64,000 bases of DNA from an uncultured Alphaproteobacteria bacterium (GTDB taxonomy: Bacteria; Pseudomonadota; Alphaproteobacteria; GCA-2731375), in contig CATOSZ010000001.1 of NCBI GenBank assembly GCA_951812805.1, positions 1,600,017 to 1,664,016 of the forward strand, read 5' to 3'. Below are positions 6,816-58,107 of the stretch, piece by piece; the stretch's first letter is position 1, and each line of letters starts with the position of its first letter. A program made the translations under genes and the position numbers. The notes below the pieces were generated by a model that did not search any database, was not told where the DNA came from, and worked only from the letters and a program-made list of their open reading frames with translations.

Positions 6816-8750
6816 ATGGTGGACGGCGGGCCGACACGGAGACTGACGACGATCCTCGCCGCCGATGTCGCCGGGTACAGCCGCCTGGTCGCCGCGGACG
6901 AGGAAGGCACACTCGCCCGGCTCGGGGACTATCGCCGCGGGCTGATCGACCCGAAGCTCGCCGGCTATCGTGGCCGCGTCGCTAACACGGCGGGCGACAG
7001 CCTGCTGATCGAATTCCCGAGCGTCGTCGACGCGTTGCGCTGCGCGCGCGAGATCCAGGCCGCCGTGGCCACCGCCAACGCCGACCTGCCGGAGGACGAG
7101 CGCCTGCACTTCCGCATTGGCCTCAACGTCGGCGACGTGGTCGAGGCGGGCGCGGACCTGCTCGGCGACGGGGTCAACGTCGCCGCCCGCCTGGAGGGCC
7201 TGGCGGAGCCGGGCGGCATCTGCCTTTCGCGCGCCGTTCGCGACCAGATCCGCGACCGCATGGACGTGTCGTTGGAGAACCTGGGCGAGGTCGAGGTGAA
7301 GAACATCGAGCGGCCCGTGCGGGCCTTCCGTGTCGCGGGGAAAGGCGCTGTGCCTCTGCCGCCTTCCGCGCCGACGGCGCGCCGCAAACTCCCGGTAGCA
7401 CTCGGTCTTCTCGTCCTTCTCGCCGTCGCGGCCGGCGGGGGCTGGTGGTGGCAGTCGGGGGCCGACGTCGCCCCCGGCGCCCCCGGCGAGGCGGTGCTTC
7501 CGCTGCCCGACAAGCCGTCGATCGCCGTGTTGCCGTTCGACAATCTCTCCGGCGACCCGGAACAGGCCTATTTCGCCGACGGCATGGCCGAAGACATCAT
7601 CACCGACCTCTCGAAACTCGACGGCCTGTTCGTCATCGCGCGCAATTCCTCGTTCCGTTATCGGGGTGGGGCGGTCGACCTGAAGGCGGTCGGGCGCGAG
7701 CTCGGCGTCAGATACGTGCTGGAGGGCTCGGTCCGCCGGGCCGGCGACGCCGTGCGGATCAACGCCCAGCTGATCGACGCGCAATCCGGCGGCCACCTTT
7801 GGGCGGATCGCTACGACGGCTCGCGGGCGAACGTCTTCGCGTTGCAGGACAAGGTGACGGCCGAGGTGGTCGCCGCGCTGGCCCTGAAACTCGATCCCGA
7901 GGCGAAGGCCCGCCTTGCCGCGCATGACGCCGGCAATCCGGAAGCCCACGACGCCTATCTCAAGGGCTGGCGGTTGATGCAGGTGGAGTCCCTGGAAAAC
8001 CTGCGTGCCGCCGAGCCCTATCTGAAGCAGGCGGTCGAGTTGGACCCGGGCCATGGCCGGGCGCATGCGGCGCTGGCATGGCTCTACTACGCCACGACCA
8101 TCATCGCGCGTGAATGGTACCCGGACTTCGGCTTCCTCTTCGCCTCCGACGCGGTCGCCCGCGCCCGCGGCCTGCTTGCCGTAGCGCTTCGCACCCCCTC
8201 CGCCTATGCGCACGGCGTCGAGGGTCGAATGCTTCGCTTTGCCTTGAAATCCGAGGACGCGCTTGCCGCGTTCGACCACGCGCTCCGCCTCAATCCCAAC
8301 GATGCCGGCACGCTCGCCTATCTCGCCGATACGCTGAACCGGCTGGGGCGGCCGGGCGAGGGGCTGGCGCATGCGGCGCGAGCACTCCGTCTCGATCCGA
8401 GGGGACCGGCCGTCTACCGGAAGGTGTTGGGGCAATTGCGCTTCGCCACCGAGGACTATGCGGGCGCGGTCGAGATCCTGGCGCCGGCGCTCCGGGACGA
8501 GCCGGACGACCTGTTCTCGCACTACTATCTGGTGGCCGCGCTCGGCTATCTCGGCCGAAAGGAAGACGCCGTGGCCGCCATCCGTCATTTCGACGAGCAG
8601 GTGGTGCCGGCCTATCTGCGGGCGGCGGACAACACGTTCAACATGGCCTGGGCACCCATGAGGGCGGGACACCTGGAACATGCCAAGTTGCTATCCAAGC
8701 GTCAGAAACAACAAATCCACGAGGGTCTGAGGCGCACCGGCGCGTTGTAG
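6816..8750 (+). CDS. Class III adenylate/guanylate cyclase with a TM segment, TolB-N-like domain and TPR repeats (paralog 1 of 5)
   Basis: N-terminal CYCc motifs (LAADVAGYSRL…NTAGDSLLIEF…GLNVGDVV…GDGVNVAARLE). One TM segment (LLVLLAVAAGGGWWW). TolB_N-like motif PSIAVLPFDNLSGDPEQAYFADGMAEDIITDLSK. C-terminal TPR region. Confidence 0.85.
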   Translation: MVDGGPTRRLTTILAADVAGYSRLVAADEEGTLARLGDYRRGLIDPKLAGYRGRVANTAGDSLLIEFPSVVDALRCAREIQAAVATANADLPEDERLHFRIGLNVGDVVEAGADLLGDGVNVAARLEGLAEPGGICLSRAVRDQIRDRMDVSLENLGEVEVKNIERPVRAFRVAGKGAVPLPPSAPTARRKLPVALGLLVLLAVAAGGGWWWQSGADVAPGAPGEAVLPLPDKPSIAVLPFDNLSGDPEQAYFADGMAEDIITDLSKLDGLFVIARNSSFRYRGGAVDLKAVGRELGVRYVLEGSVRRAGDAVRINAQLIDAQSGGHLWADRYDGSRANVFALQDKVTAEVVAALALKLDPEAKARLAAHDAGNPEAHDAYLKGWRLMQVESLENLRAAEPYLKQAVELDPGHGRAHAALAWLYYATTIIAREWYPDFGFLFASDAVARARGLLAVALRTPSAYAHGVEGRMLRFALKSEDALAAFDHALRLNPNDAGTLAYLADTLNRLGRPGEGLAHAARALRLDPRGPAVYRKVLGQLRFATEDYAGAVEILAPALRDEPDDLFSHYYLVAALGYLGRKEDAVAAIRHFDEQVVPAYLRAADNTFNMAWAPMRAGHLEHAKLLSKRQKQQIHEGLRRTGAL

Positions 8751-11687: not shown

Positions 11688-12898
11688 GTGACGCCCGTCC
11701 GACTGATCGCCACCATGTGCGTGGTGCAGGTGCTGGGGATGTTGAGCTTCTCGAGCTTCCCGGCCCTGCTGCCGATGTTCCTGGACGAATGGTCGCTCAG
11801 CGGTACGGAGGCGGGCTGGCTCTCCGGCCTGTTCTTCGTCGGCTATATGGCGGCGGTGCCGCTGCTGGGCGCGGCGACGGACCGGATCGACGCCCGCATC
11901 GTCTATCTCGCCTCGACCGCGCTCGGCGGTGCGGCGATCCTCGGCTTCGCGGTGCTGGCCGAGGGGTTCTGGAGCGCGGCACCGCTCCGCGTGCTGGCCG
12001 GCGCCGCGCTCGCCGGGACCTACATGCCGGGCCTCAAGGCGCTCACCGACAGGATCGAGGACGCGCGCGCGGAAACCCGCGCCGTCACCTTCTACACATC
12101 GTCCTTCGCGATCGGCGTTTCCGTCTCCTACCTGTTGGCCGGCGAAATCGCCCGGGACTTCGGCTGGCGCTGGGCCTTCGCCCTGCCGGCCTGCTGACTT
12201 CGGTCAGTTTTGTCGTCGCCTGGATCGTCTTGCGGCCGAAACCGGTCGCGCGGCCCGTCGGCCACCGCCTCGACTTTCTCGATTTCCGCCCGGTCCTCAC
12301 CAACCGGCGGACCATGGCTTACGTCTTCGCCTACGCCGCCCACAACTGGGAGCTTTTCGGCATGCGGGCCTGGATCGTCGCCTTCCTCGCCTTCGCGGCG
12401 GCGCGCGCGCCCGGCGGCGAAGCGCCCTTCATCGCCGCCACGACGGTGGCCGCCCTGGTCGGCCTGCTCGGCATGCCGGCGAACGTGCTCGGCAACGAGT
12501 TGGCGCTTCGCTTTGGACGTGCGCGGGTGATCCCGGTGTTCATGGTGATCTCGGTGCTGGTTTGCGGCGGAATCGGCTTTTCCGCCGGCCTGGCCTACGG
12601 CGTGGTGGTCGGCCTCTGCCTGCTGCACGGCGTGACCGCAACCTGGGAGAGCGCGGCGGTGACGTCCGGGGCGGTGCAATCGGCCGAGCGGTCGCGCCGG
12701 GGCGCCACCATGGCGGTGCACACCTTCATCGGCCTCGGCATCGCCGTCCTCGGCGCCGCCGTGCCCGGCATCGCCCTCGATCTCGGTGGTGGGCCGGAGA
12801 GCGCGGTGGCCTGGCGCTGGACCTGGATTACCATCGCCGCCGGCGCCGCCTTCGGGCCGCTGGCGTTGCGGTTGTTGCCTCGCGAAGATATCAGTTGA
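11688..12898 (+). pseudogene. MFS transporter, interrupted by a frameshift near 12185-12195
   Basis: The N-terminal half (11688-12197: MTPVRLIATMCVVQVLGML…GWRWAFALPAC*) and the C-terminal half (frame of 11612..12898: …LLTSVSFVVAWIVL…LRLLPREDIS) form one 12-TM MFS protein only if a 1-nt shift is introduced around 'gccctgccggcctgctgacttcg'. Confidence 0.6.
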
Positions 12899-12981
12899 TT
12901 AATAAATATATAATCTTGACCACGACTATAATGTTTCTTAAAGTTGCAGATCTAACCCTAATTCATATGGAGAGTAGAATC

Positions 12982-13395
12982 ATGCGTCGCTTAACCAGCC
13001 TTTCCACCCTTCTGATATTCCTGCTGTGGGCACCGATGGCCGTGAATGCCGCGTCGGACTCCCTTAAGCTCGTGGCGGGTCAGACGTGGGTCAATCAGAG
13101 TGGATCGACATTGACGATCACCGGCTACGGGGCGAACAACTCGTTCACCGGCTATTACATCAACCGGGCGGCCGGCTTCGGCTGTCAAAACACGCAGTAC
13201 CCGGTTTCGGGCTGGGTGAACGGCTTCACGATCGGTTGGTCGGTCAACTGGGCCAACAGCACCCAGAACTGCGGTTCCGTCACCGCCTGGGCCGGATACT
13301 ATAGTTCGGCATCGGGCCAGATCCTCACCAAATGGAGCCTCGCGACGTCCGCCCCGGACATCATCGTCGGCGGCGACACGTTTACGGCGCAATAG
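12982..13395 (+). CDS. Avidin/streptavidin-family biotin-binding protein (rhizavidin/bradavidin-like), secreted
   Basis: Signal peptide (MRRLTSLSTLLIFLLWAPMAVNA). Core WVNQSGSTLTITG…GYYINRAAGFGCQNTQYPVSGWVNGFTIGWSVNWANSTQNCGSVTAWAGYY…ILTKWSLAT…GGDTFTAQ matches avidin-family beta-barrel strands and the rhizavidin Cys pair. Sits in a low-GC islet with a GGAGAG RBS. Confidence 0.8.
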   Translation: MRRLTSLSTLLIFLLWAPMAVNAASDSLKLVAGQTWVNQSGSTLTITGYGANNSFTGYYINRAAGFGCQNTQYPVSGWVNGFTIGWSVNWANSTQNCGSVTAWAGYYSSASGQILTKWSLATSAPDIIVGGDTFTAQ

Positions 13396-13436
13396 GTGGT
13401 TATCGGACCGGGCGGTCGCAGCCGCTCGGTCCGGGA

Positions 13437-13916
13437 CTACAAGGGAAAGACCAGCAGGACGTCCACGCGACGGCTTTCCAGGATCACCCGGCGTTCCGCC
13501 AGGCGCGGTGCGCCGTCCTCGAGGACGATGCGATCCAGGTATTTGCCGACCGCGAACAGCTCGCTCGCGCCGTCCTGCATAGTGCGCACCACGGTGAAAT
13601 TGGTCCGCGCCGTGATGCCTGCGCCGTTGGACGAGAGGGCCGAGCGGCTCAGCATGTGACAATAGGTGTGCGGCTCGAAGATGTTGGCGGTGCGCAGAGC
13701 TAAAATCCGGTCCGACATCATCGCCCGGCTCTCGCAATAGAAAATACCGAGCGGCAGGCCCGCCTCGTGGTTCTCCCGCGTGGTGATCTGATAGACCGCG
13801 TCCTCGGTGAAGTATCCGGGCCAGGCTTCCAGGTCGCCGTCGTCGATGGCGTGCGCATAGGCGAGGAGGAAATCCTCAATTCTTCCCCGCGTTCCGGGCT
13901 CGATTCCCTCGCTCAC
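13437..13916 (-). CDS. Aromatic ring-hydroxylating dioxygenase beta (small) subunit
   Basis: 159 aa, SnoaL-like small-subunit pattern. GTG start overlaps the alpha-subunit stop (GTGA). Confidence 0.8.
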   Translation of the reverse strand: MSEGIEPGTRGRIEDFLLAYAHAIDDGDLEAWPGYFTEDAVYQITTRENHEAGLPLGIFYCESRAMMSDRILALRTANIFEPHTYCHMLSRSALSSNGAGITARTNFTVVRTMQDGASELFAVGKYLDRIVLEDGAPRLAERRVILESRRVDVLLVFPL

Positions 13917-15172
13917 GCCTCGATCCCCATGATGCGGCGATAGCCGGTCCAGAAGCCGCGGATCGCGACCTCGGTGGCACGGCTGGCGTCGCTCGATTCG
14001 ACGTCGCGACCGCCCATTTCGATGAAGGCGTTGCGATCCCCGCTGCCGGCCGTGCCGCGCTGCACAAACTCGTTGATGCAGCCGTCCTCCAGGCTGACCA
14101 GGCCGGCGGCGCCGGTCAGGTTGCCCTGCATCACCCGCATGGCGGTCTTCGCTTCGTCGTCGTCGTCATAGCCGAGGTAGTGCCAGAACAGCTCCGTCTG
14201 ATCGACGCCGCGCGGCGCGAAATAGCGCACGCAGAGCGAATTCAAGGTGAAGTGGATGCCGAGATTGGGGAATACCGCCTGAATCGAATGGGTGATGCCG
14301 TCGTCGAATTCGTCCCAGGCGTCCAGCAGCTCCGGGCCTTCCAGCTTGGAATCGAACTGGTCCGAGTGGACGTCCGCCTTCTGGTATTCCTCCGCCTCGT
14401 CGAAGGTGGCGCGCTTGGCGTAGCTCACGTGGTGCCATTTGTCGTCGGCCATGATGATGCCGCCGTCCATGTCGAGGCGGTTGATCTTGAAGGTCGTGTA
14501 GAAGGTGTGCAGCAGGGTCGCGTGATAGGAATCGCGCAAGTTCTCCGCATAGAGCTTCCAGTTGTTGTGGATGATCTGGCTATGCATGCCGAGGCGGTGC
14601 AGGGGTCGGTCGAGGTTGCGGCGGATGAACTTGCTCATCACCGGGCCGAGGTAGCTTTCGACCGAGGGCATGTCGGGATCGAAGGTGCCGAAGACCAGGC
14701 CGGAAAACACCTCGACGCGGATCGGCTCCATGCGATGGCGGGCGAGATCGAAGTCTTCCGGCATGCCGCCCTTGCCCCGGAGGCCATGGCGAAAGGCCAG
14801 GCCCTTCAGACGCCCGCCCATGTCGTAGGTCCAGGAGTGATAGACGCAAGTCAGCATCTTGGCGTTGCCGCGTTCCTTCAGGCAGACCAGGGCGCCCTTG
14901 TGGGCGCAACGGTTGATCAGGCCGTGCACCTCGCCCTCCTCGTCCCGGGTGACGACGATCGGCACCTCGCCGACGTGGGTCGTCTTGAAGTCGCCCGGGT
15001 TCGGGATGTCGATCTCGAGACAGAGAAAATTCCACACCGGCCCGCGAAAGATCCGCTCCTGCTCCAACCGATAGATCTCCGGGTCGGAGAACAGGCGGAA
15101 GGGAATGCGCGTCACGCCCTCCTCCGGCCAGACCAGGGGTTCGCTCAACTCGTCGATTGCCGCGATGCTCAT
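13913..15172 (-). CDS. Rieske non-heme iron ring-hydroxylating dioxygenase alpha (large) subunit
   Basis: Rieske motif CAHKG…CVYHSW, followed by a mononuclear-iron catalytic-domain-like C-terminal half. 419 aa. Confidence 0.9.
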   Translation of the reverse strand: MSIAAIDELSEPLVWPEEGVTRIPFRLFSDPEIYRLEQERIFRGPVWNFLCLEIDIPNPGDFKTTHVGEVPIVVTRDEEGEVHGLINRCAHKGALVCLKERGNAKMLTCVYHSWTYDMGGRLKGLAFRHGLRGKGGMPEDFDLARHRMEPIRVEVFSGLVFGTFDPDMPSVESYLGPVMSKFIRRNLDRPLHRLGMHSQIIHNNWKLYAENLRDSYHATLLHTFYTTFKINRLDMDGGIIMADDKWHHVSYAKRATFDEAEEYQKADVHSDQFDSKLEGPELLDAWDEFDDGITHSIQAVFPNLGIHFTLNSLCVRYFAPRGVDQTELFWHYLGYDDDDEAKTAMRVMQGNLTGAAGLVSLEDGCINEFVQRGTAGSGDRNAFIEMGGRDVESSDASRATEVAIRGFWTGYRRIMGIEA

Positions 15173-33552: not shown

Positions 33553-33948
33553 ATGCGCATGGCGGGCAAGAAGGGCATGGTCACGGCGGCGGCCTCGGGC
33601 ATCACGGGGTCGCCCTTCTCGCCTGTGTATTCGGCGGCCAAGCACGGTGTCGTCGGCTTCGTCCGCGCGCTCGCCAAGCGCCACGGCCCTGAAGGGATCC
33701 GGGCCAACGTGGTCTGCCCGGGGACGACGGACACGCCGATGCTGCGCGTCTTCCTGGCCCGACCCGACCAGCAGTCGACGCACGGCATGGACCCTGAGGA
33801 ACTGGTGGCCAAGCGGGCCGGGCAGAACGCGCTCGGCCGACCCGCCCGGCCGGAGGAGATCGCCAACGCGGCTCTTTTCCTGCTCTCGGACGAGGCCTCC
33901 TTCATCACCGGCACGGCGCTTCCCGTCGACGGCGGCAATACCGCATGA
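33553..33948 (+). pseudogene. SDR-family dehydrogenase remnant: C-terminal half only (YxxxK catalytic region), N-terminal Rossmann half absent
   Basis: 131 aa starting …SPFSPVYSAAKHGVVGFVRALA… No TGxxxGIG N-terminal part lies upstream; the enoyl-CoA hydratase stop is only 25 bp away. Confidence 0.55.
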
Positions 33949-39190: not shown

Positions 39191-40921
39191 TCATGCCGGC
39201 AGTCCGAGGCGACCCAGGACGTCGTCGACATGGGCCAGCAGCCCGGGGTCGTCATGCATGAAGAACTGCGGCAGATGACTTCGTCGGAACATCGGGGCGA
39301 AGCGCTGGAGTTCGGTCATAGCGGCCCGCGCCTCGTCGTGCCGGCCCAGGCATTCGAGGGCGTGGGCCCGGTAGATCCAGGTCATCTGAAAGCCGAGCCC
39401 GTGTTTCAGCAACCGCTCCGTGGCGGCGAGGCATTCGACGTGGCGCTCGAGGCACAGCAAGACGCGTGCATGGCCGTAGTGATACCAGCTCGGCGTCAAC
39501 GGATTGAGGTCGATCGCCGCCTCGAAGTGCTGGACCGCCTCGTCGTAGCGCCCGGCGTGCATCAGCGTGAAGCCGTAGATGGCGCGCGTGTCGGCGTTGC
39601 CGGGATGCAGGGTAAGGCCCCGCCGGGCGATCTCGACGCCGTCCGCATGGCGGTTCAACGCCGCCGCGAGCATGGCGTTCAGGCTGATCGCCGCCGGCTC
39701 GCTCTCGTTGAGGACAAGCGCCTTGCGGGCGTAGGTGTCGGCCTCCTCGAAGTGGGCCATCGCCTCCGGTCCCAGCGACAATCGACCTTCGTACATGACC
39801 GTCCAGCCGACCAGCGCCCAGGCGGTCGCATAGTCCGGGTCGATATCGATGGCACGCCGGGCCAGTTCCCGCGCCTTCGAGGCGGCGGCGGCGTCGAACT
39901 TCAGCCACAGGTCCCAGGCGGTGACGCAGTTTCGCCAGGCCTCGACATTGTTGGTGCCGCGGGACAACATCAGGGCCCGTTCGCCGTCGGTCAGGCGAAG
40001 GCGCAGGTTGGTGACGATTTCCTTGACGATCTCGTCCTGGATCTCGAAGACGTCGTCCATTCGCCGGTCGTAGCGTTCGGCCCAGAGATGGGTGCCGTCG
40101 GCGGCGTCGATCAGCTGTGCCGTCACCCGGATACGGCTGCCGCCGCTCCGCACGCTGCCCTCCAGCACATAGCGCACGCCGAGTTCCGTCGCGACCCGGC
40201 CAAGATCCGTCGCGTCGCCCTTGTAGGCGAAGCTCGAATTTCGGGCGATGACCTTGAGCCGGGAAACCATCGAAAGCGCGGTGATGACATCCTCGGCGAT
40301 GCCGTCGCAGAAGAATTCCTGTTCCGGGTCGCTCGACCTGTTGGCGAAGGGCAGCACGGCGATCGAGGGGATCTCGTCACGCGGCGCGACGGCCGGCATG
40401 GATCGCGCGGTTGTCTCCGGTGCCCAGCGCCAGACCCGGACGGGGCGCCGGATATTCTTCACCTCGTGCTCGCCATCGTCGCTGAAGACGGCATCGAGCT
40501 TGCCCCGGACCTGGTCGTGAACGGTGCCCGAGACGGCGATCCCGCCCGGTTCGGCCAATGCTTCCAGGCGGGCGGCGATGTTGACGCCCTCGCCCAGGAT
40601 ATCCTCGCCGTCGACGACGACGTCGCCGAGATTGATGCCGATACGGAACCGCATGCCGTCTGTCGTCGTCGCCATGGCCTTCTGGACCCCGAGCGCGCAG
40701 CCGACCGCGGCGACGGCGCTGGCGAACTCGAGCAGCATGCCGTCGCCCGTGGTCTTGACGATGCGCCCGCCGTTCGCGGCAATCGCCGGGTCGACATGGT
40801 CGCGCCGATGCGCCTTGAGGGTGCGGATCGTGCCCGCTTCGTCCGCCTCCATCAGCCCGGAATAGCCGACCACGTCCGCCATCATGATCGCCGCCAGACG
40901 GCGTTCCTCGCCGGCGCTCAC
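39191..40921 (-). CDS. Class III cyclase-TolB_N-TPR protein (paralog 5; third gene of tandem triplet)
   Basis: The probable GTG start at 40921 overlaps the upstream stop (GTGA), giving VSAGEERRLAAIMMADVVGYSGL… This parallels the N-termini of the two upstream paralogs. Confidence 0.75.
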   Translation of the reverse strand: MSAGEERRLAAIMMADVVGYSGLMEADEAGTIRTLKAHRRDHVDPAIAANGGRIVKTTGDGMLLEFASAVAAVGCALGVQKAMATTTDGMRFRIGINLGDVVVDGEDILGEGVNIAARLEALAEPGGIAVSGTVHDQVRGKLDAVFSDDGEHEVKNIRRPVRVWRWAPETTARSMPAVAPRDEIPSIAVLPFANRSSDPEQEFFCDGIAEDVITALSMVSRLKVIARNSSFAYKGDATDLGRVATELGVRYVLEGSVRSGGSRIRVTAQLIDAADGTHLWAERYDRRMDDVFEIQDEIVKEIVTNLRLRLTDGERALMLSRGTNNVEAWRNCVTAWDLWLKFDAAAASKARELARRAIDIDPDYATAWALVGWTVMYEGRLSLGPEAMAHFEEADTYARKALVLNESEPAAISLNAMLAAALNRHADGVEIARRGLTLHPGNADTRAIYGFTLMHAGRYDEAVQHFEAAIDLNPLTPSWYHYGHARVLLCLERHVECLAATERLLKHGLGFQMTWIYRAHALECLGRHDEARAAMTELQRFAPMFRRSHLPQFFMHDDPGLLAHVDDVLGRLGLPA

Positions 40922-42654
40922 ACCGCCATCCCCGCGTCGGTCAGGACCCCGGCCAGCCGTTCCAGCATCTCCGGGTCGTTCAGCAGGAAGAATTGCGGCA
41001 GGTGGCCGACCCGCAGCATCGGTGCCAGCTGCGACGCGCGGGTCATCGCCTCGCGCGCCTCGGCGTCGCGGCCCTGGCATTGATAGATATAGGCACGGTA
41101 GAGCCAAGCCTGATGATGGTCCGGCTGGGCTTCCAACAGGCCGTCGATCGCTTGAAGGGATTCGTCCAGCCGGCCGAGGCAGAGCAGCGCGCGGGCATGG
41201 CCGTTGCGATACCAGACCGGCGGCAGCGGATTGAGCGCGAAGGCGGATGCGAAGTGCACCAGCGCCGCCTCGTAGCGTCCGCCATGCAGCAGGGCGAAGG
41301 CGAGAAAGCCGCGGGCATCCGCATTGCTCGGCAGGTGCGAGAGCGCTTCTTCGGCGATGGCCACGGCCTCGACGAAATTACCGTCCGAAAGCGCTACCAT
41401 CGTGGCGATGCCGGCGGTGACGCTGTTGCGTGCGTCGAGCGCGATCGCCCGTTCGGCGCAGTCGCGCGCGGTCGCAAAACTTTCCCGCGACGTCTCCGCC
41501 ACGGTCATCCGGCCCTCGAACCAGTGGGCGAAGGCCAGCGTCCCCCAGGCCGCCGCATAGTCGGGGTCGAGCGCGATGGCCCGCTCCGCGTGCTCGCGCG
41601 CCCGCAGGTGGCCGGAAGCGTTGTGCTTGATGTATTCGTCCATGGCACGCTGGCAGTGTTGCCAGGCCTCGATATTGTCGGTGCCGCGGGAGAGCATCAG
41701 GGCCTGCTCGCCGTCGGTCAGGCGGAGACGCAGGTTGGTGACGATTTCCTTGACGATCTCGTCCTGGATCTCGAAGACGTCGTCGAGGCGGCGATCATAA
41801 TGCTCGGCCCAGAGGTGGCCGCCGTCGGTGGCGTCGATCAGCTGCGCGGTGACCCGGATGCGGCTCCCGCCGGTCCGCACACTGCCTTCCAGGACGTAGC
41901 GCACGCCCAATTCCTCGGCGACGCGGCGGATGTCGGGCGAGGTGCCCTTGTAGGCGAAGCTGGAATTGCGCGCGATGACCTTGAGGCGGGCGATCTTCGA
42001 CAGCGCGGTGATCACGTCCTCGGCGATGCCGTCGCAGAAGAATTCCTGTTCGGGATCGGCCGACATGTTGGCGAACGGCAGCACGGCGATCGAGGGATCG
42101 TCGCCCGTTGCGCGGGCGCTCGGCTCGGCCCCGGGCGCCGTCGGGGCCTCCGCACTCCAGCGCCAGACCTGGACGGGGCGCTGGATGTTCTTCACCTGTT
42201 GCGCGCCGTCGTCCGTGAAGACCGCGTCCAGTTTGCCCTGGACCTGGTCGTGAACGGTCCCCGAGACGGCGATCCCGCCCGGATCGGCCAATGCTTCCAG
42301 GCGGGCGGCGACATTGACGCCTTCGCCCAGGATATCCTCGCCGTCGATGACGATGTCGCCGAGATTGACGCCGATGCGGAAGCGCATGTCGCCCGCCCTA
42401 TCGGCCATCGCCCGCTGGATCCACAGCGCGCAGTCGACGGCGGCCACGGCGCTGGCGAATTCGACCAGCATGCCGTCGCCCGTGGTCTTGACGATGCGTC
42501 CGCCGTGCGCGTGGATCGCCGGGTCGACGATATCGCGCCGGATGGCCTTCAGGCGCCGGATCGTCCCCGCCTCGTCCACCTCCATCAGTCCGGAATAGCC
42601 GACGACGTCCACCGCCAGGATCGCCGCCAGCCGACGTTCCACACCCCCGCTCAT
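40918..42654 (-). CDS. Class III cyclase-TolB_N-TPR protein (paralog 4; middle gene of tandem triplet)
   Basis: ATG at 42654 overlaps the upstream stop (ATGA): MSGGVERRLAAILAVDVVGYSGL… The rest of the 1087-aa ORF in the track is an upstream read-through. Confidence 0.8.
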   Translation of the reverse strand: MSGGVERRLAAILAVDVVGYSGLMEVDEAGTIRRLKAIRRDIVDPAIHAHGGRIVKTTGDGMLVEFASAVAAVDCALWIQRAMADRAGDMRFRIGVNLGDIVIDGEDILGEGVNVAARLEALADPGGIAVSGTVHDQVQGKLDAVFTDDGAQQVKNIQRPVQVWRWSAEAPTAPGAEPSARATGDDPSIAVLPFANMSADPEQEFFCDGIAEDVITALSKIARLKVIARNSSFAYKGTSPDIRRVAEELGVRYVLEGSVRTGGSRIRVTAQLIDATDGGHLWAEHYDRRLDDVFEIQDEIVKEIVTNLRLRLTDGEQALMLSRGTDNIEAWQHCQRAMDEYIKHNASGHLRAREHAERAIALDPDYAAAWGTLAFAHWFEGRMTVAETSRESFATARDCAERAIALDARNSVTAGIATMVALSDGNFVEAVAIAEEALSHLPSNADARGFLAFALLHGGRYEAALVHFASAFALNPLPPVWYRNGHARALLCLGRLDESLQAIDGLLEAQPDHHQAWLYRAYIYQCQGRDAEAREAMTRASQLAPMLRVGHLPQFFLLNDPEMLERLAGVLTDAGMAV

Positions 42655-44402
42655 GCCGGCAGCCCGGCCCGGCCCAGGGCGTCCGTGAAGTGGACCAGCA
42701 ATTCGGGGTCGTCGTGCAGGACGAGATTTGGCAAATGTCCCAGGCGGAATAGGGGGGCCAGGCGCACAACCTCCGCCACGCAGGCTCGCGCATCGTTCGA
42801 TCGGCCGAGGGATTCGAACGCGTAGGCGCGGTAGATCAACACCGTCTGATGACTGCCCTCGAGTTCCAGGGCCCGGTCGGTGGCGGCCAGCGCCGCCTCG
42901 TAGCGTTCGAGGCCGAGCAAGGCGCTCGCGTAGCCGCCGTGGTACCAGCTGGGCGTGATGGGGTTGAGGGAAATCGCCGCCTCGAAATGAAGCGCCGCGT
43001 CCTCGTAGCGCGCGGCCTGCGCCAGGGCCAAGGCGTAGTAGGCGCGCATATCGGCGTTGCCCGGATGATGGGCGAGGCCGCGCTCGGCAATGTCGACGCC
43101 GTCGCCATATCGCCCGAAAGCCACGGCCACCATGGCCTCGAGGCCGATGGCCATGGGCACCGTCGCATCCAGCGCAAGGGCCCGTTGCACATATCGGGCC
43201 GCCTGCTCGAACTTCTCCGTCGCCGCTGCGCCGAGCGATGTCCGTGCCTCGAACCAGAAGGACCATCCGGCCAGCGCATGGGCGACGGCATAGTCGGGAT
43301 CCAGCGCGATCGCTCCCTCGGCCAACGCCCGGGCACGGAGGTTTGTCGCAACCTCGAATTTCAGGAAAAGGTCCCAGGCCGTGGCGCAGTTCTGCCAAGC
43401 CTCGACGTTGCGGGTGCCACGGGCGATCAACAGCGCGCCGTCGCCATCCGAGAGGCGGACGCGCAGGTTGGCGACGATTTCCTTGACGATCTCGTCCTGG
43501 ATCGCGAAGACGTCGTCCATCCGCCGATCGTAGCGTTCGGCCCACAAGTGTGCGCCGTCCGTCGCGTCGATCAGCTGCGCCGTCACGCGGACACGACCGC
43601 CCCCGCTCCGCACGCTGCCCTCCAGCACGTGGCGCACGCCGAGGTCCTCGGCGACGCGGCGGATATCCGGCGATGTGCCCTTGTAGGCGAAGCTCGAATT
43701 GCGCGCGATGACCTTGAGGCGGGAGATCTTCGAGAGGGCGGTGATCACGTCCTCGGCGATGCCGTCGCAGAAGAACTCCTGTTCCGGATCGGCCGACATG
43801 TTGGCGAAGGGCAGCACGGCGATCGAGGGCGTCGCCGTTGTGGGCGCGTCCGCCACGGCGGGCTCCACCGCCAACATCTCCGGTTCCCAGCGCCAGATGT
43901 GGACCGGGCGGGCGATGTTCTTGACCTTGTGCATGCCACCGTCGGCCCAGGCGAGGTCGAGGCGGTCGCGGATCTGGCGGTGCGCGTCGTCCGAAATGGC
44001 GATGCCGCCGGGTGTGGCCAGGGCTTCGATACGGGCCGCGATGTTGACCCCATCGCCGAGCAGGTCCCCGCCCTCGGCGACGACGTCGCCGACATGAATG
44101 CCGACCCGGAACTCGATCCGCCGGTCCGCGTCGACGGCCCGGTTGCGTTCCGCCATGGCGTTCTGTGCGGCCGTGACGCACTTCACGGCGTCGACTGCGC
44201 TCGGGAATTCCAGCAGCAGGCTGTCGCCGGCGGTGTTGGCGATACGCCCGCCGTGGGTGTCGACGAGGCCGTCGATCAGCTCGCGCCGGTGCGCGCGCAA
44301 GGCGGCCAGCGTCGCCTCCTCGTCCGCGCCGACGAGACGCGAATAGCCGGCAACGTCCGCCGCCACGATCGCCGCAAGTCGTCTCACCGTGTTCTCCGCC
44401 AT
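42651..44402 (-). CDS. Class III cyclase-TolB_N-TPR protein (paralog 3; first gene of tandem triplet)
   Basis: 583 aa: MAENTVRRLAAIVAADVAGYSRL…, TolB_N motif PSIAVLPFANMSADPEQEFFCDGIAEDVITALSK, TPR tail. Confidence 0.85.
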   Translation of the reverse strand: MAENTVRRLAAIVAADVAGYSRLVGADEEATLAALRAHRRELIDGLVDTHGGRIANTAGDSLLLEFPSAVDAVKCVTAAQNAMAERNRAVDADRRIEFRVGIHVGDVVAEGGDLLGDGVNIAARIEALATPGGIAISDDAHRQIRDRLDLAWADGGMHKVKNIARPVHIWRWEPEMLAVEPAVADAPTTATPSIAVLPFANMSADPEQEFFCDGIAEDVITALSKISRLKVIARNSSFAYKGTSPDIRRVAEDLGVRHVLEGSVRSGGGRVRVTAQLIDATDGAHLWAERYDRRMDDVFAIQDEIVKEIVANLRVRLSDGDGALLIARGTRNVEAWQNCATAWDLFLKFEVATNLRARALAEGAIALDPDYAVAHALAGWSFWFEARTSLGAAATEKFEQAARYVQRALALDATVPMAIGLEAMVAVAFGRYGDGVDIAERGLAHHPGNADMRAYYALALAQAARYEDAALHFEAAISLNPITPSWYHGGYASALLGLERYEAALAATDRALELEGSHQTVLIYRAYAFESLGRSNDARACVAEVVRLAPLFRLGHLPNLVLHDDPELLVHFTDALGRAGLPA

Positions 44403-46723: not shown

Positions 46724-46895
46724 TGCGCGTTTCGGAAAGTCCCGGACACCGATTACGGAAAGTCCTGGCCAGAGATTTCAGTAAGTCGCGGCCAGTGATT
46801 CCGGAAAGTCCCGGACAGCATCACGGGGCGATCTGAGTTCAGCTTTCGGGTGCGCCGTCTCGGCGTCTACCTCTTGGCTTTTGCCGGGAGGGGAC

Positions 46896-48449
46896 ATGCC
46901 CAGACGGAAGCAGACGAGACGAACGACGGTGAGAGATGCACGAACGATCCTGCGGCTGACGCATGACCAAGGCCTCTCGGCGCGAGAGGTGGCGGAACGG
47001 CTGAAGGTCTCCAAGACGACAGTGTCGACCTATTTGCTGCGGGCCCGCGAGGTCGGCCTTACCGCCTGGCCGCTGCCGGCGGAATACGAGGACGACGCGG
47101 TCCTGCAAGAGACGCTGTTCCGCCGCATGGGCCGGCCCCCGCGCGACAGGTGCGAGCCGCACTGGCCGACGGTCGCGGCCGAGCTGAAGCGCAAGGGGGT
47201 GACGCTGACCCTGCTCTGGCAGGAATACCGCGCCTCACATCCCGATGGCTACGGCTACACCTGGTTCTGCGAAGCCTTCACGGCGTTCAAGCGGCGCACC
47301 GGCGCCACCTGGCGCAACCGCCACGAGGCCGGTGCGGTCATGCAGACCGATTATGCCGGCCAGACGGTGGACATCGTCGACCCCGAGACCGGCGAGGTGC
47401 ACGACGCGCAGATCTTCGTCGCCGTGCTGGGCGCTTCCTCGCTCACCTTCGCCACCGCCAGCCTGACCCAGCGCCTGCCCGACTGGGTCGCCGGACAATG
47501 CCGGGCGCTCGCCTACTTCGGCGGCGTGCCCAAGAGCATCGTCTGCGATAACCTCAAGGCCGGCGTCGCCAAGCCGCTCTGGTTCGAGCCGACCCTCAAC
47601 CCGACCTTCGCCGCGCTCGCCGAGCACTACGACACCACCGTCCTGCCGACCCGGGTCCGCAAGCCGCGCGACAAGGCCAAGGTCGAAGTCGCCGTCCAGG
47701 TCGTCGAGCGCTGGATCCTGGCAAGACTGCGCAATACGCGCTTCTTCTCCCTCGACCAGCTCAACCGGGCGATCCGCGACCTCCTCGAGGAGCTCAACGA
47801 GCGGCCCATGCGCAACCTTGGAAAGAGCCGGCGCCAGATGTTCGAGGCCATCGAGCGCGAGGCCCTGGCACCCCTGCCGACGACGCCCTTCGAATATGCC
47901 GAATGGAAGACCGCCAAGGTCCATTCCGACTATCACGTCGACGTCGAGCGCAGCTTCTACTCCGTGCCGCACGGCCTGATCGGCCGCAAGGTCCAAGTCC
48001 GGCTCACTCACCGCACGGTCGAGATCTTCCACAACCACAAGCGCGTCGCCAGCCATCTCCGCCGCTCACCGCATGGCGGCCATGCCACGATCCCGGCCCA
48101 CATGCCCAAGGCGCACCAGCGCTATGCCGAGCGAACGCCACAAAGCCTGATCGACCAGGCCAGCCGCATCGGCCCCAACGCCGCCCTCCTGGTCGAGCGG
48201 ATGATCCGCGATCGGCCCCATCCCGAGCAAGGCTATCGCAGCGCCATGGGCGTCTTGTCGCTCGCCCGCCGATACGAACCGGAACGCGTCGAGGCCGCCT
48301 GCGCACGCGCGCTCACCATCAACACGACCAGCTACTCATCGCTCGCCGCCATCCTCAAGTCCGGCCTCGATCGCACACGCCCCGAGCGCGAACCGCTTCT
48401 GCCGCTGCCGCCACACACCAACATCCGCGGCCCCGGCTACTACCGATAA
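46896..48449 (+). CDS. istA: IS21-family transposase IstA
   Basis: HTH N-terminus plus DDE integrase core (…[33 protein letters not shown]…). ATG 46896 after GGGAGGGG. Confidence 0.9.
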
Positions 48450-48466
48450 CCAGGAGAAGACACCTC

Positions 48467-49243
48467 ATGCTGACACACCCGACCCTCGACCAGATGCAGG
48501 CCCTCGGCTTCAAGGGCATGGCAGAGGCTTACCGCGACATGGCCGAGCGAGGCCAATCATCGGAATTGAACCGCGAGGACTGGCTCGCCCTCATGCTCGA
48601 CCGCGAGGCCGCCACCCGCGCCGACAAGCGCCTCGCCAACCGCCTCAGACAGGCCAGGCTACGCTTCCCCGAGGCCTGCATCGAGGACATCGACTTCGCC
48701 GCCGAACGAGGCCTCGACCGCCGCGCCGTCCTCTCTCTCGCCCAGGGCGTCTGGCTCAAGGCACACGAGAACCTCATCGTCACCGGCCAGACCGGAACCG
48801 GCAAGACATGGCTCGCCTGTGCCATCGCCCATCAGGCCGCCAGGCTCGATCATTCCGTCCTCTACGTCCGCATGCCCAGGCTCTTCGAGGACCTCGCCAT
48901 GGCCCGCCTCGACGGCCGGCTGCCCCGCCTGATCGACCGCCTCGCCCGGGTCCAGCTGCTCGTCCTCGACGACTGGGGAACCCATGGCCTGACCGACCGC
49001 CAGCGCCTCGATCTCCTGGAAATCTGCGAGGAACGATACCACCGACGCTCAACCCTCATCACCGCGCAGATCCCCGTGACCGCCTGGCACGACCTGATCG
49101 GCGAGGCCACCATCGCCGACGCCATCCTCGACCGCGTCATCCACAACGCCCACCGCATCGGCTTGAAAGGCGACAGCATGCGAAAGAAGAAATCGACGAC
49201 CGACTTGACCCAGCCAACCACAACGGAAAACAATCCCGACTGA
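48467..49243 (+). CDS. istB: IS21-family helper ATPase IstB
   Basis: Walker [14 protein letters not shown]. Walker B LLVLDDWG. Confidence 0.9.
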
Positions 49244-49529
49244 CGGCAACAAGGCACCCGAAGCCAAACTCCCGGAACCGGCCGGGACTTTATGAAATCG
49301 GTGGCCAGGACTTACTGAAACCGCCGTCCGGAACTACCGAAATCCGCAGCCCGCCACGGAGGAAGAACTTTTCCCGTTCCTTGAAGGTCCTGGTGTCCCC
49401 GAAGGGGAGCGGTGTCCTGGGCCCGCGCACGCATCGAATCCAGTGTCGCCGCCTCGACGATCGCAGCCAGACGTCCTGCATCCAGAGCGGCGTCGAAAAT
49501 CCCCGCCAAAACTCTGGTGTCCCCAGATT

Positions 49530-51461
49530 TCAGACAGGATTATACCCGGGTATAATCGGGTAGGAGGGGTCCTCTCGGCGCCCCTCCTCCCACACCACCG
49601 GGCATACGTTCTACGTACCACGGCGGTTTCCGGTCAGTTGTAACGCGAGATACCTATCGGTCATAGGGACAAGCCCCTGGCCTTCGAACCAAGCCAGGGT
49701 CATGGCTTCGGTGGCTTGATAGCTGAGGGACTTGCGCCACCAGCCCTTGCCGGAGAGAGCCAAGATCCAGGCCCGCCGCTCGGGCACCCCGAGGCTTCGC
49801 AGGAAGTCCGCTTGCGCCTTGGTGCGCTTGCATTGCTTGAGCCGGACACAGCGCAGTTTTCGACGGATCCAGCCGTCGAGACGCCGAAGCTGGCTCGCGC
49901 AACGGGCATGGCGGAAGTACGTCACCCAGCCGGCGAGGAAGCCGTTGAGTTCGCCGACCATGCGCGCGAGGCTGATGCCCCGGTTGCGCCGGGTGATCTC
50001 GCGAACCCGTTGCTTCGCCCGCCGCAGGCTTTGCGGCGCGATGCCGAGCGATCCATCCGACAACAGCCGGTGGCCGAGGAACTTGCGGTCCCCGGCCGGA
50101 GCGACGGCACTTTTCTCCTGGTTGACCCGCAGATGCAACCTGCCTTGGAGGAATTCGGCGACCGAGGCCATCACCCGCTCGCCCGCCGCTCGAGTGCGAA
50201 CGTAGATGTTCACGTCGTCGGCATAACGGCAGAAGCTATGGCCCCGCGCCTCCAGCATCCGGTCCAGATCGTCCAGTAGAAGATTGGCCAGCAGCGGCGA
50301 CAGCGGGCCGCCTTGCGGCGTGCCCTCATGGCGCCGGATGCAGACGCCGGTCTGCATCATCCCCGCTTGCAGAAAGCGACGGATGGTGCGCAGCAGGCGC
50401 TTGTCGCCAATCCGCCCAGCCAGTCGGGACATCAGAATGTCGTGATTGACCCGGTCGAAGAACGCCTCCAGATCCAGGTCGACCACAATCCCGCGGCCTT
50501 CGGCAACGTACTTACCCGCTTGGGCCAGAGCATCGTGAGCGCTCCGGCCCGGACGGAAGCCGAAACTCGAAGCCGAGAAACCCGGATCGAGGATCGGCTG
50601 AAGGACGTGCAGGATGGCTTGCTGAACCAGACGATCCAGCACCGTCGGGATGCCCAATTGCCGCATCCCGCCTCCCGGCTTGGGGATCGAGACCCCCTTC
50701 ACCGGTTGGGGCCGATAGTCGCCTCGCGACAACGCCGCCACCAGCGCGTCCTTGTGATCGACGAGCCAGAGCCGCAGGTCTTGGATGGTCATCCCATCCA
50801 CGCCCGCCGACCCCTTGTTCGCCTTCACCCGCTTGTAGGCTTGGTTCAGGTTGGCGGAACTCACCACCCGTTCCATCAGGTCTTGCGTCAAGGCTCGTTG
50901 CCGGTCCAACGCCGTGCGCACTTGTGGCACCTCGCAGGCTCCAGTTCCGGTTCCGCCGTCACCAGGGGCCTCGGGGCGCAGCGCCTTCATCAGGGCCTCG
51001 TCGAAAAGGTCCAATTGATAGCCACCGCCTTGCTGCCGCTCCATGCTCATCGAGTTGGTCCAGACTGCTCCTTGCTATTCGGATTCGGCCCTTCGGCGCC
51101 TCGCGGCCCCTACTATGGCCTCGGCTGACTTCTCCACCGCCGTCGCTCCCCGTCGCCGGGTCGCTACTCGGTTCCCCCGAGAGCGCTGGAGATCTCCCTG
51201 GGTAAAACCTTGATCTTTCCGCCGGTCGCGGCCGGATTTACCAATGCGATGTCCGAACGACTATCGGGCATCGCCATCCATTGCTGGCTTACCCCATCGC
51301 ACCGGCCTGATATCCGGTTTCTGTTCGTCCGCTCCGGATTTTGCCTCCGGCTTCCTCCCCACCCCACCTCGCGGCGACGCAGTTGCCTTCAGCTAACGGT
51401 TCCGGTCGTTACGGCCCGTAGAGAACTTCCATCTCCTAGATCAACGCCATGCCAGGCACAC
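49530..51461 (-). mobile_element. Group II intron (class C-like, about 1.9 kb) inserted immediately 3' of a terminator hairpin; 3' boundary approximate
   Basis: The minus-strand 5' end GUGUG at 51461-51457 directly follows the hairpin plus U-run. A 479-aa RT/maturase ORF sits in domain IV. GNRA-capped D5-like hairpin at 49558-49596. 20-bp palindrome at 49538-49557. Confidence 0.6.
49611..51050 (-). CDS. Group II intron-encoded reverse transcriptase/maturase
   Basis: RT domains 0-7 (…AYKRVKANKGSAGVDGMTI…FGFRPGRSAHDAL…YADDVNIYV…) and X/maturase region. 479 aa. Confidence 0.9.
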   Translation of the reverse strand: MSMERQQGGGYQLDLFDEALMKALRPEAPGDGGTGTGACEVPQVRTALDRQRALTQDLMERVVSSANLNQAYKRVKANKGSAGVDGMTIQDLRLWLVDHKDALVAALSRGDYRPQPVKGVSIPKPGGGMRQLGIPTVLDRLVQQAILHVLQPILDPGFSASSFGFRPGRSAHDALAQAGKYVAEGRGIVVDLDLEAFFDRVNHDILMSRLAGRIGDKRLLRTIRRFLQAGMMQTGVCIRRHEGTPQGGPLSPLLANLLLDDLDRMLEARGHSFCRYADDVNIYVRTRAAGERVMASVAEFLQGRLHLRVNQEKSAVAPAGDRKFLGHRLLSDGSLGIAPQSLRRAKQRVREITRRNRGISLARMVGELNGFLAGWVTYFRHARCASQLRRLDGWIRRKLRCVRLKQCKRTKAQADFLRSLGVPERRAWILALSGKGWWRKSLSYQATEAMTLAWFEGQGLVPMTDRYLALQLTGNRRGT

Positions 51462-51488
51462 AAGAAAAGGGGCCGCCGAAGCGGCCCC
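51462..51488 (-). terminator. Rho-independent terminator (GGGGCCGC-UUCG-GCGGCCCC + UUUUCUU) serving as the intron target
   Basis: Perfect 8-bp GC stem with a UUCG loop and a U-run on the minus strand. The intron 5' end abuts it. Confidence 0.55.
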
Positions 51489-51680
51489 TAACGATGTCCT
51501 CGATAACCTCACCATTTCCCGGAACATTGGGCGGATGCTCCCGATGTCCATGATGCCGTCAGCAAGTTCATCCTCCTTCAACCACGAAGTTGGTGGAAGA
51601 TGCGCCCTCGGCGATTCCCTGTCAAGGGCAAATGTGAGGCCGTCGGAGATATCGCCCGGTCCCGCCCCGGTCGATCAACC

Positions 51681-53081
51681 ATGCAACAGCACAACACCTC
51701 CCACACCAGCTCCACCCCCCGTCCCTGGCTCGCCAACGAGAGCCTCAACCCGAGCGGCGGCCGGGAACGCTCCCCGGTCCACAAGCAGGCCGAGAGGGGC
51801 GCGGAGAGCTTTCTCGGCCTGCCCGAGGGCATCAAGCGCTTCGAGATCCTCGCCGTCCTGCGCCGGGTCGGCCTCGAGGACGGCTGGACACGCGGCCTGA
51901 TCAGCCACTACGAGCTGCTGCTCACCTACACCAGGGAGAGCGACTGGGCGCCGGGCGGACGACCCGTCGTCTGGCTCTCGGTGGAGAAGGCGGCCCAACA
52001 GCTCGGTATCTCCCCCCGCCAGGTCCGGCGCAACGAGCGGCGGATGATGGAACTGGGCGCCCTGGCCTTCCGTGATTCTCCCAACCACCGCCGCTTCGGG
52101 CGCCGCGACGGCGAGGGCCGGATCGTCGAGGCCTATGGCCTGGACCTCTCGCCCGCCGCCGCCCTGCTGCCCCGCCTGGCACGGCTGGAACAGACCCTGG
52201 TCCGGAACAGGGCCGAATGGCGCCGGCTCAAGCGGGAGATCGGCACGGCCCGCAAGGGCATCCGCGCCGCCATCGAATGGGCCCTCGAACACCAGCGCGT
52301 GAGCGACGAGATCGCCGAGACGCTCTGGCAGGGATTACAGGGCTTCGCAGAGCGGATCCGCGCCGAAACACCCCTCGATGGCTTGCGTCAACGACTGGCC
52401 GAACTCCGCGCCTTCGACGCCCGTCTGTGGCGTCTGATCGGGGAAGATCGGCCCGTGGACCCGCCCGGGGACAATTCCCCCAACGACGACAATGACTTGC
52501 CGGCCAATATGTCCGCCACGGGGGACCGATATGTCCGCCCTGGCGGACATCCGTGTCCGCCACCATTAGATGACAATACAAACCTAGTTCCTGATCAAGG
52601 AATACCGGTAAGCGGCGGCGAAGCGGCCGCCGGGCCGGCAAGGGACGAAGGGGGCGCGGCGGTGGCGGCTCACCGGCACCCGCCGGGGCGCGGCGGAGAG
52701 GAAGGGGGCCGGCACGGGGATGTGCCCCGGCCCCGGGTGTCGTGGGACAACCTGCTGGCGATCCTGCCGCCGGGCCTGCGCCATCGGCTGCCGCTCGATG
52801 AACATCCCTCCTGGTCCTCGTTGATCGACGCGGCGGGCGAGCACGCCGCCGAACTCGGCATCTCGCCCCATGCCTGGGGGGAGGCCTGCCGGGCAATGGG
52901 CCGGGAGGGGGCGGCGATGGCGGTGATCGTCGTCGCCGCCAAGCACCACCGGGGCGAGGTGCGCCGCCCCGGCGGCTACTTGCGCGCACTGACGGCGCGG
53001 GCCGGGACGGGGGAGCTGCATCTCGCCCGCTCCGTGTACGGCCTGCTCAACACAACCACGGGAAAGGAACAGAACCGATGA
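51681..53081 (+). CDS. repC: Replication initiator protein, RepC-like (HTH)
   Basis: …WLSVEKAAQQLGISPRQVRRNERRMMELGALAFRDSPNHRRFGRRDGEGRIVEAYGLDLSPAAALLPRL… matches the RepC family core. Followed by parA-parB with ATGA overlap. Confidence 0.7.
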   Translation: MQQHNTSHTSSTPRPWLANESLNPSGGRERSPVHKQAERGAESFLGLPEGIKRFEILAVLRRVGLEDGWTRGLISHYELLLTYTRESDWAPGGRPVVWLSVEKAAQQLGISPRQVRRNERRMMELGALAFRDSPNHRRFGRRDGEGRIVEAYGLDLSPAAALLPRLARLEQTLVRNRAEWRRLKREIGTARKGIRAAIEWALEHQRVSDEIAETLWQGLQGFAERIRAETPLDGLRQRLAELRAFDARLWRLIGEDRPVDPPGDNSPNDDNDLPANMSATGDRYVRPGGHPCPPPLDDNTNLVPDQGIPVSGGEAAAGPARDEGGAAVAAHRHPPGRGGEEGGRHGDVPRPRVSWDNLLAILPPGLRHRLPLDEHPSWSSLIDAAGEHAAELGISPHAWGEACRAMGREGAAMAVIVVAAKHHRGEVRRPGGYLRALTARAGTGELHLARSVYGLLNTTTGKEQNR

Positions 53082-54759: not shown

Positions 54760-54764
54760 AGCAA

Positions 54765-54796
54765 GGGGGAGGAACGAATCTCTCCGTTCCTCCCCC
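54765..54796. terminator. Bidirectional terminator hairpin between convergent parB and recombinase genes
   Basis: gggggaggaacg aatctctc cgttcctccccc (perfect 12-bp stem). Confidence 0.5.
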
Positions 54797-54841
54797 TTCC
54801 GTGCCGCTGTTCATGCTGGTTTGCGATTTCCGGTTGGCCGT

Positions 54842-56422: not shown

Positions 56423-56461
56423 GGCGTTCGGTCTCCGTAAGACGATGAAAAGCGCCCGCCG

Positions 56462-56700
56462 CTGGTCTCCAGGCGGCCCTCCAGCCTCGCTCGGGCTCCC
56501 CTCCGATGCGCGGTGCCGGCTGCGGGTTGTATCGCGGCACGAGCGAGCTGAAACGTCGTATCGAAGACGGCGACGAAACACCCATACATTAGCGATACCC
56601 GTATTGACTGCTGGTCCCTTGGAGTCATATGCTGGCGGCCTCTTCACGGGGCCTCTTTCTACACGCTAGGAGCCCTGAAGTGATGTTGATCTCTCGAAAG
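56462..56700. repeat. Copy A of an about 240-bp duplicated divergent promoter/5'-UTR segment (copy B at 60885-61190)
   Basis: Near-identical sequence (…ggtctccaggcggccctccagcctcgctcggg…cgacgaaacacccatacattagcgatacccgtattgactg…) upstream of both SLP genes and of both divergent minus-strand genes. Confidence 0.6.
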
Positions 56701-57951: not shown

Positions 57952-57975
57952 CTCCGGGCGGGCTTGACTTCAAAC

Positions 57976-58029
57976 GGGCGGGGTCCGGAGAGAAACGCTC
58001 CGAGCCCCGCCCGGCTTTTTTCCGTTTTT
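57976..58029 (+). terminator. Rho-independent terminator after SLP1 (identical arrangement after SLP2 at 63437-63490)
   Basis: gggcggggtccggag agaaacg ctccgagccccgccc followed by ggcTTTTTTccgTTTTT. Confidence 0.6.
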
Positions 58030-58102: not shown

Positions 58103-58107
58103 ATCTC

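Follow-up and report, generated by a model that had tools for sequence, protein, structure and literature searches.

The open reading frame at 12982-13395 of the 64-kb window (the whole stretch of DNA analysed here) has been described from its letters as a gene for a secreted, biotin-binding avidin. This raises the question of whether the product is a functional avidin, to which kind of avidin it belongs and how the gene came to lie between a transporter gene and a dioxygenase operon. The span given in the preliminary description begins at 12899, the base directly after the stop codon of the MFS gene, and comprises a spacer as well as the gene. The protein itself is real; its length is 137 aa rather than the 138 first reported, a figure that is reached only by counting the stop codon. 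The features of the locus are:

11688-12898, plus strand: MFS transporter gene, frameshifted, upstream of the avidin gene
12899-12981, plus strand: upstream spacer of 83 bp, AT-rich (28.9% GC), containing the promoter candidate and the ribosome-binding site
12982-13395, plus strand: avidin ORF (ATG at 12982, TAG at 13393-13395; 137 aa, 138 codons with the stop)
12982-13050, plus strand: predicted signal peptide, residues 1-23 (inspection, hydropathy, low pLDDT, leaders in homologues)
13051-13395, plus strand: mature avidin domain, residues 24-137, and stop codon (profile, structure and alignment evidence)
13396-13440, strand not applicable: GC-rich hairpin between the convergent avidin and dioxygenase beta-subunit genes
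13437-15172, minus strand: Rieske ring-hydroxylating dioxygenase genes (beta 13437-13916, alpha 13913-15172), convergent with the avidin gene and used as synteny anchors

The gene, its composition and its leader

A Shine-Dalgarno-like box, GGAGAG, is located at 12969-12974, 5' of the avidin ATG. The spacer carries a sigma-70-like match, TTGACC-17-TAAAGT, at 12916-12944, where 0.1 would be expected by chance, and two TATAAT boxes (12909 and 12927). By its match to the consensus, TTGACC-17-TAAAGT is a candidate promoter. No BioR-type operator (TTATMKATAA) was found upstream of the gene, the best match having two mismatches, and biotin-responsive regulation was rejected on this ground. Downstream, the hairpin at 13396-13440 has a folding energy of -34.2 kcal/mol (z = -6.1), which none of 200 shuffled sequences equalled, and was also recovered as inverted repeat I2. 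It has no T-run and the consensus terminator scan made no call there; it is probably a transcript-end or terminator structure. The hairpin sits in a stretch without DNA similarity to the related contigs L003-L006 described below, which have a classical T-run terminator instead. A family HMM built from 83 homologues gave exactly one match (139 bits) in the six-frame translation of the window, so the window holds no second avidin copy. No convincing direct repeats or target-site duplications flank the cassette.

The gene had been placed in a low-GC islet, with about 30% GC at 12899-13000; the computed value for these positions is 34.3%. The islet is confined to the 83-bp spacer, which marks the lowest-GC 100-bp stretch of the window (mean 66.7%), but the coding sequence is host-like. 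Its overall GC content is 60.6% (GC1 0.46, GC2 0.55), and its GC3 of 0.81 falls inside the range of 0.78-0.93 seen for 42 GC3-selected ORFs of the window. The lower overall GC is mostly due to the amino-acid composition of the protein, which is rich in Asn, Ser, Thr, Trp and Tyr and is reflected in the low GC1. In Bradyrhizobium, R. etli and two MAGs, the avidin genes depart from their own loci by the same 6-9 points, and their upstream regions are also AT-richer. Since GC3 is host-like and the same offset recurs in other avidin genes, composition offers no argument for recent transfer, and the compositional case for it was rejected.

The N-terminus of the protein reads MRRLTSLSTLLIFLLWAPMAVNA followed by ASDS and resembles a signal peptide. 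It consists of an MRR n-region, an 18-residue hydrophobic core, LSTLLIFLLWAPMAV, with a mean hydropathy above 2, and a V-N-A motif before A24; the call was made by rules (inspection and hydropathy). The leader has a pLDDT of 58-66 in the AlphaFold2 model, compared to 97-98 for the remaining protein, and homologues have equivalent N-terminal leaders. Neither a lipobox nor a convincing twin-arginine motif is present in the leader. Its n-, h- and c-regions, together with the AXA-type site, support Sec export with a predicted cleavage between A23 and A24, in line with the secreted protein proposed earlier. The predicted mature product has 114 aa, a mass of about 12.0 kDa and a pI of about 6.1. A Sec leader by itself delivers a protein only to the periplasm in a diderm, and we identified no route across the outer membrane for the avidin and no secretion system near its gene.

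Family, fold and biotin contacts

The Pfam Avidin profile (PF01382) matches residues 35-125 at 51.2 bits (E 1.9e-13), well above its gathering score of 24. Among PDB sequences the best matches were wilavidin (E 1.2e-28), shwanavidin (3.9e-28), afifavidin (4e-25) and rhizavidin (2.9e-22), followed by agroavidin (about 3e-19) and hoefavidin (about 1e-16), and E was only about 1e-8 for bradavidin 2, bradavidin, streptavidin and tamavidin. The NCBIfam streptavidin equivalog NF047623 scored 31.8 bits against a cut-off of 300, which rules out streptavidin proper. Judged by these E-values (1e-28 to 1e-16 vs about 1e-8), the protein is nearer in sequence to the dimeric-avidin clade than to the other avidin clades. 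Eleven clades of bacterial avidins have been catalogued, 'Dimeric avidins' among them, with signal peptides in about half of the proteins and some of the genes borne on plasmids (PMC8033661). The window protein therefore adds to a known family.

A HMMER search of 1.84 billion cluster representatives returned 321 proteins at E <=0.001, with 116 of them at <=1e-10; the closest full-length relative from this pass, P0002, is 54% identical. In a word-indexed search of 5.8 billion proteins the identical sequence occurred once (NCBI/ENA) and nothing else exceeded 50%. The identity to any other sequence found is at most 55%. The top-scoring match of the representative search (E 1.5e-39) was P0129, a protein of 405 aa with three tandem avidin domains and an N-terminal leader. 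This natural triple-domain avidin may merit a look of its own.

Modelled with AlphaFold2 on the alignment of the 83 homologues, the protein has eight beta-strands, with a pLDDT of 97-98 over residues 31-137. Foldseek against the PDB placed the wilavidin-biotin complex 7ouq_B on top (E 6.6e-14, rmsd 1.2 A over 112 columns, 49% identity), followed by shwanavidin, afifavidin, agroavidin and rhizavidin, and the best 50 matches were all avidins (rmsd 1.2-3.1 A). The modelled protein is thus an eight-stranded antiparallel beta-barrel. Profile match, similarity to solved structures, predicted fold and the residue alignment described next all bear out membership of the avidin family.

The identity of the residues with which streptavidin contacts biotin is established knowledge. 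Our alignment set the window protein beside streptavidin (sequence and numbering verified against 1stp), rhizavidin (from the R. etli p42d record), afifavidin, and the segments of wilavidin and shwanavidin given by the PDB matches. The predicted biotin contacts in this alignment are N38, S42, Y59, N61, W90, S99, T101, W103, W118 and D132. Streptavidin N23, S27, Y43, W79 and S88 correspond to N38, S42, Y59, W90 and S99, and its T90, W92, W108 and D128 correspond to T101, W103, W118 and D132. With streptavidin and rhizavidin included, N38, S42, W90, S99, T101, W103, W118 and D132 are invariant. The apparent conservation of the W/N/S/T/Y positions noted at the outset is thus upheld: all streptavidin contacts are kept, the contact residues are conserved relative to rhizavidin, and none of the key Trp, Asn, Ser and Tyr residues is lost. 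The fold and the contacts together make it very likely that the protein binds biotin.

The protein also carries the marks of the dimeric clade. The motifs GFGCQNT (residues 65-71) and QNCGS (95-99) contain Cys68 and Cys97, which are invariant among the 83 homologues and align with the disulfide cysteines represented by rhizavidin C50 and shwanavidin C45, so that the rhizavidin-type Cys pair (GCQN…NC) of the preliminary description is confirmed. A disulfide between the L3,4 and L5,6 loops is a hallmark of dimeric avidins and keeps the lid shut, and these avidins lack the Trp that a neighbouring subunit donates from its L7,8 loop (PMC5398887). F66 aligns with shwanavidin F43, whose Ala mutant was deposited as a 'low affinity mutant' (3t2x). 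The L7,8 loop of the window protein is a short turn, TSAP (in ATSAPD), with no Trp. The span from W118 to G130 comprises 11 residues, compared to 17 in streptavidin and a family range of 10-21; the short loop is common to 14 of about 80 homologues and is not unique to this protein. Collectively, the computations show the family, the predicted eight-stranded fold, the full set of streptavidin-type contacts, the Cys pair, the Phe lid and the lack of an L7,8 Trp.

A variable slot beside the dioxygenase operon

Related contigs were reached via homologues of the downstream dioxygenase beta subunit. In L003-L006, where this subunit is 81% identical, the gene order ECH, MFS, slot, RHD-beta/alpha is conserved and a DctP solute-binding gene occupies the slot in place of the avidin gene. 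DNA similarity to the window ends at the end of the MFS gene (12888) and restarts at the RHD-beta stop codon (13437). In L001 and L002 the beta subunit is 90% identical and the DNA is 93.7% identical to the window across 8.2 kb. Here the similarity starts within the avidin gene, at window position 13162, which leaves the 3' 78 codons with an in-frame TAG following '...NWNL'. P0134 and P0240 are the called products of such remnants in the sister lineage, and fragments of a group II intron (two matches to Rfam RF02003 and one to RF00029) lie 5' of the remnant.

The structure of the sister locus has further features. In L001:10739-11645 two RF02003 D1-D4 fragments and an RF00029 domain V/VI match take the place of the 5' half of the avidin gene, and a Transposase_mut gene follows the intron fragments. 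The L001 region is inverted relative to the window, in that window 6009-6742 matches L001 12241-12974 in the opposite relative orientation. At the 3' end of the remnant (L001:10520-10760, minus strand; L002:1480-1600) the final 57 nt are 56% identical to the window, compared to 88-90% in the flanks; 20 of the 25 differences are window G/C changed to A/T and many are synonymous, and the end still reads as an avidin-like strand 8 (IIHGKNTFSVQ*). Rather than random decay, this suggests a mosaic or a low-GC allele that has diverged.

Since the remnant lies at the same site in the L001 lineage, an avidin gene was present there in the common ancestor of the window and L001 lineages. The comparison supports the view that the avidin gene is an accessory gene in a rearrangement-prone slot, which the window lineage has, the sister lineage has lost and the next lineage out is without. 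The suggestion of horizontal acquisition is therefore supported by synteny but not by composition, and this support does not extend to a recent event.

The gene abuts a frameshifted MFS gene, as had been reported. The Pfam MFS_1 match is split between two frames, with profile positions 2-158 at 11688-12197 and 165-338 at 12200-12898, and compared to two intact orthologues 1 nt is deleted at about 12187 (CCGG vs CCAGGG/CCGGGG). The frameshift is either a true pseudogene mutation or an assembly error. Within 10 kb of the avidin gene lie genes for a TauD-family dioxygenase, an enoyl-CoA hydratase, the Rieske dioxygenase, an ABC permease with its binding protein, and dehydrogenases; farther out, besides a mobile block, there are genes for three cyclase-TPR proteins, CoA-transferases and acyl-CoA enzymes. 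Named homologues of the neighbouring genes are at best 64-67% identical and come from Rhodospirillaceae, Alphaproteobacteria, Reyranella and Bradyrhizobium MAGs; the host is probably an uncultured alphaproteobacterium with a high-GC genome. The roughly 40 window proteins scanned across the 64 kb are catabolic enzymes, transporters, cyclases and mobile elements, with no biotin transporter, bio gene, antimetabolite cluster or other biotin-related gene among them.

At the homologous avidin loci (L007-L010 from genomes, L012-L024 from metagenomes) the neighbours are unrelated and include a helicase, Tex, PepSY_TM, Sel1, AMP-binding enzymes and a tyrosinase. No conserved partner gene was found across loci L007-L024, in agreement with PMC8033661. 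We considered a secreted 'biotinophore' working with a TonB-dependent receptor and rejected it, as the large ORFs beside the homologues are the helicase, Tex and unrelated proteins of no known kind; two of these large ORFs, both unannotated, share no homology. An AMP-binding (acyl-CoA synthetase-like) gene lies about 0.3-0.7 kb 3' of the avidin gene in two loci (L021:5641-7179 and L023:3104-4645). One of these shares its avidin match with the Bradyrhizobium MAG locus L008, and the pairing may reflect common ancestry.

Elsewhere in the window, a mobile or plasmid-derived block extends over 46881-59336:

46881-48449: IS21 transposase
49611-51050: RT/maturase ORF of a group II intron, with RNA domains at 51088-51378, minus strand
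51600-53081: RepC (repABC-type), about 30% identical to alphaproteobacterial plasmid RepC
53078-53803: ParA-like ATPase
54842-56647: large serine recombinase
58791-59336: DDE transposase

The region upstream of repC showed neither repA nor repB. The contig could be a chromid or could have an integrated element in it. The short-chain dehydrogenase ORF at 33553-33948 covers only Pfam positions 125-236, and an enoyl-CoA hydratase gene directly before it fills the space where its N-terminal half would lie, so the ORF appears truncated. The three cyclase proteins (6816-8750, 39191-41107 and 42651-44402) look paralogous, each with an N-terminal adenylate/guanylate cyclase domain, and two of the three also have TPR repeats.

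Proposed mechanism, role and relation to known avidins

We consider it highly probable, taking the evidence as a whole, that the gene encodes a Sec-exported avidin of the dimeric clade that uses a lid mechanism to remove biotin and that has the history of an accessory gene. The protein would be exported and cleaved between A23 and A24, and the 114-residue domain would then fold in the oxidising periplasm. There, Cys68 in the L3,4 loop would bond to Cys97 in the L5,6 loop and so pin the L3,4 lid. Biotin in the barrel would receive hydrogen bonds from N38, S42, Y59, N61, S99, T101 and D132 and pack on W90, W103 and W118, and F66 would cap it in place of the Trp from a neighbouring subunit. With such a cap, tight binding should need only the conserved 1-4 type dimer. 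Free biotin would in this way be removed from the surroundings or the periplasm, starving competitors or grazers of the vitamin. The gene would have entered the variable slot between the MFS gene and the dioxygenase operon in an ancestor of the lineage and would already have decayed in the sister.

A role in competition or defence, including the antimicrobial one first suggested, is drawn by analogy: for streptavidin, sequestration of biotin forms part of an antibiotic network (PMC13336041), and bacterial avidins in general have been proposed to act in defence (PMC8033661). The locus has no biotin genes, antimetabolite clusters or conserved partners, so the ecological role draws no support from context. 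The frameshift in the neighbouring MFS gene and the loss of the avidin gene in the sister lineage also suggest that selection on the gene may be weak.

A periplasmic avidin could instead serve its producer, by capturing or buffering scarce biotin or by binding biotin-like antimetabolites to protect itself, and be no weapon against competitors. That a Sec leader is the only export signal found, with no secretion system nearby, fits such a role, and streptavidin has a documented second function as a binder of acidomycin (PMC13336041). However, the very tight binding typical of avidins is ill-suited to biotin delivery, the 64 kb contain no biotin transporter, bio genes or antimetabolite cluster, and neither a TonB-type receptor nor a conserved partner lies beside the homologues. 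We regard a producer-serving role as unlikely, though it deserves some weight.

A bolder extension of the preferred reading, in which the protein removes biotin as a dimeric-clade avidin, would place it with its few short-loop relatives in a subgroup whose quaternary behaviour departs from that of the characterised dimeric avidins. With its four-residue L7,8 turn and Phe66 cap, the protein could be a minimal high-affinity binder of only ~12 kDa, strictly dimeric or even monomeric, carried on a cassette of AT-rich promoter, ORF and hairpin that alphaproteobacterial genomes rapidly gain and lose. We think this doubtful at present.

The gene might also look intact and yet be silent or in decay, a relic of a past acquisition that is heading for loss as in the sister lineage, where only the 3' remnant with its in-frame TAG, beside group II intron fragments, is left (L001, L002, P0134, P0240). 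The frameshift in the adjoining MFS gene, the several mobile elements and the one truncated gene in the window would agree with this. Against it, the ORF is complete and has kept all functionally important residues and a host-like GC3, and it has a promoter-like site and a good ribosome-binding site on its 5' side and a strong hairpin on its 3' side. A relic is accordingly improbable in our judgement. It is more improbable still that the fold has drifted to another ligand or to none, as in the fibropellins or the doubtful 'metavidin' clade: Laitinen et al. (PMC8033661) stress that sequence alone is no proof of binding, and the identity to any characterised avidin is at most 55%, but the inactivating Trp to Lys/Arg changes of the fibropellin type are absent and every hydrogen-bonding and aromatic contact is conserved.

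The window protein is an ordinary addition to a well-studied family, and it opens no new question; its main use is as a candidate reagent. Natural avidins with tight biotin binding but no tetramer formation are sought-after reagents, and rhizavidin has found use in vaccine platforms and engineered monomeric hybrids. Being compact and divergent (<=55% identity) with all functional residues intact, the window protein is a reasonable candidate for expression. The locus also provides one more case of an avidin gene acting as a dispensable accessory, present in one lineage, decayed in its sister and absent in the next, a pattern that fits the published picture of patchy, horizontally spread bacterial avidins.

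Among known avidins, wilavidin (7ouq, 7our, 7p8y) is the best match in sequence (about 50-55% identity) and in structure (TM 0.86 on target). The Cys pair and contact residues are common to both proteins, as is the YINRAAG-x-GCQNT-YPV-GW core. They differ at the lid, where wilavidin has Tyr and the window protein Phe66, in strand 5, where wilavidin has Phe and the window protein Trp86, and in the L7,8 turn, which as LATSAPD is four residues shorter than the LVINGSTSTGQ of wilavidin. Shwanavidin (3szh, 3szj) is about 45-50% identical and has the Phe lid of the AAGF-x-CQN motif, the disulfide positions and the lack of an L7,8 Trp in common with the window protein, which has the shorter L7,8 loop. 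Its host, Shewanella denitrificans, is a marine gammaproteobacterium, whereas the window belongs to a high-GC alphaproteobacterium-like genome.

Rhizavidin (3ew1, 3ew2), encoded on plasmid p42d of Rhizobium etli CFN42, is 42-49% identical and also has an alphaproteobacterial host. Like the window protein, it has a Sec leader, keeps the Cys pair and every contact residue, and has no Trp in its short L7,8 loop, but it has Thr at the lid position of Phe66 and a C-terminal extension of about 18 residues that the window protein lacks. The rhizavidin gene lies on a conjugative symbiotic plasmid; the window contig is 1.73 Mb long and has a RepC gene 38 kb from the avidin gene. Streptavidin, from Streptomyces avidinii, shares the fold and the biotin contacts at an identity of only 34-36%. 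In contrast to streptavidin, the window protein has a predicted disulfide, a shorter L7,8 loop and no counterpart of streptavidin W120 (avidin W110), and its gene does not lie beside a biotin-antimetabolite cluster of the kind found in the streptavidin-type network. Together, these comparisons place the window protein closest to wilavidin, shwanavidin and rhizavidin.
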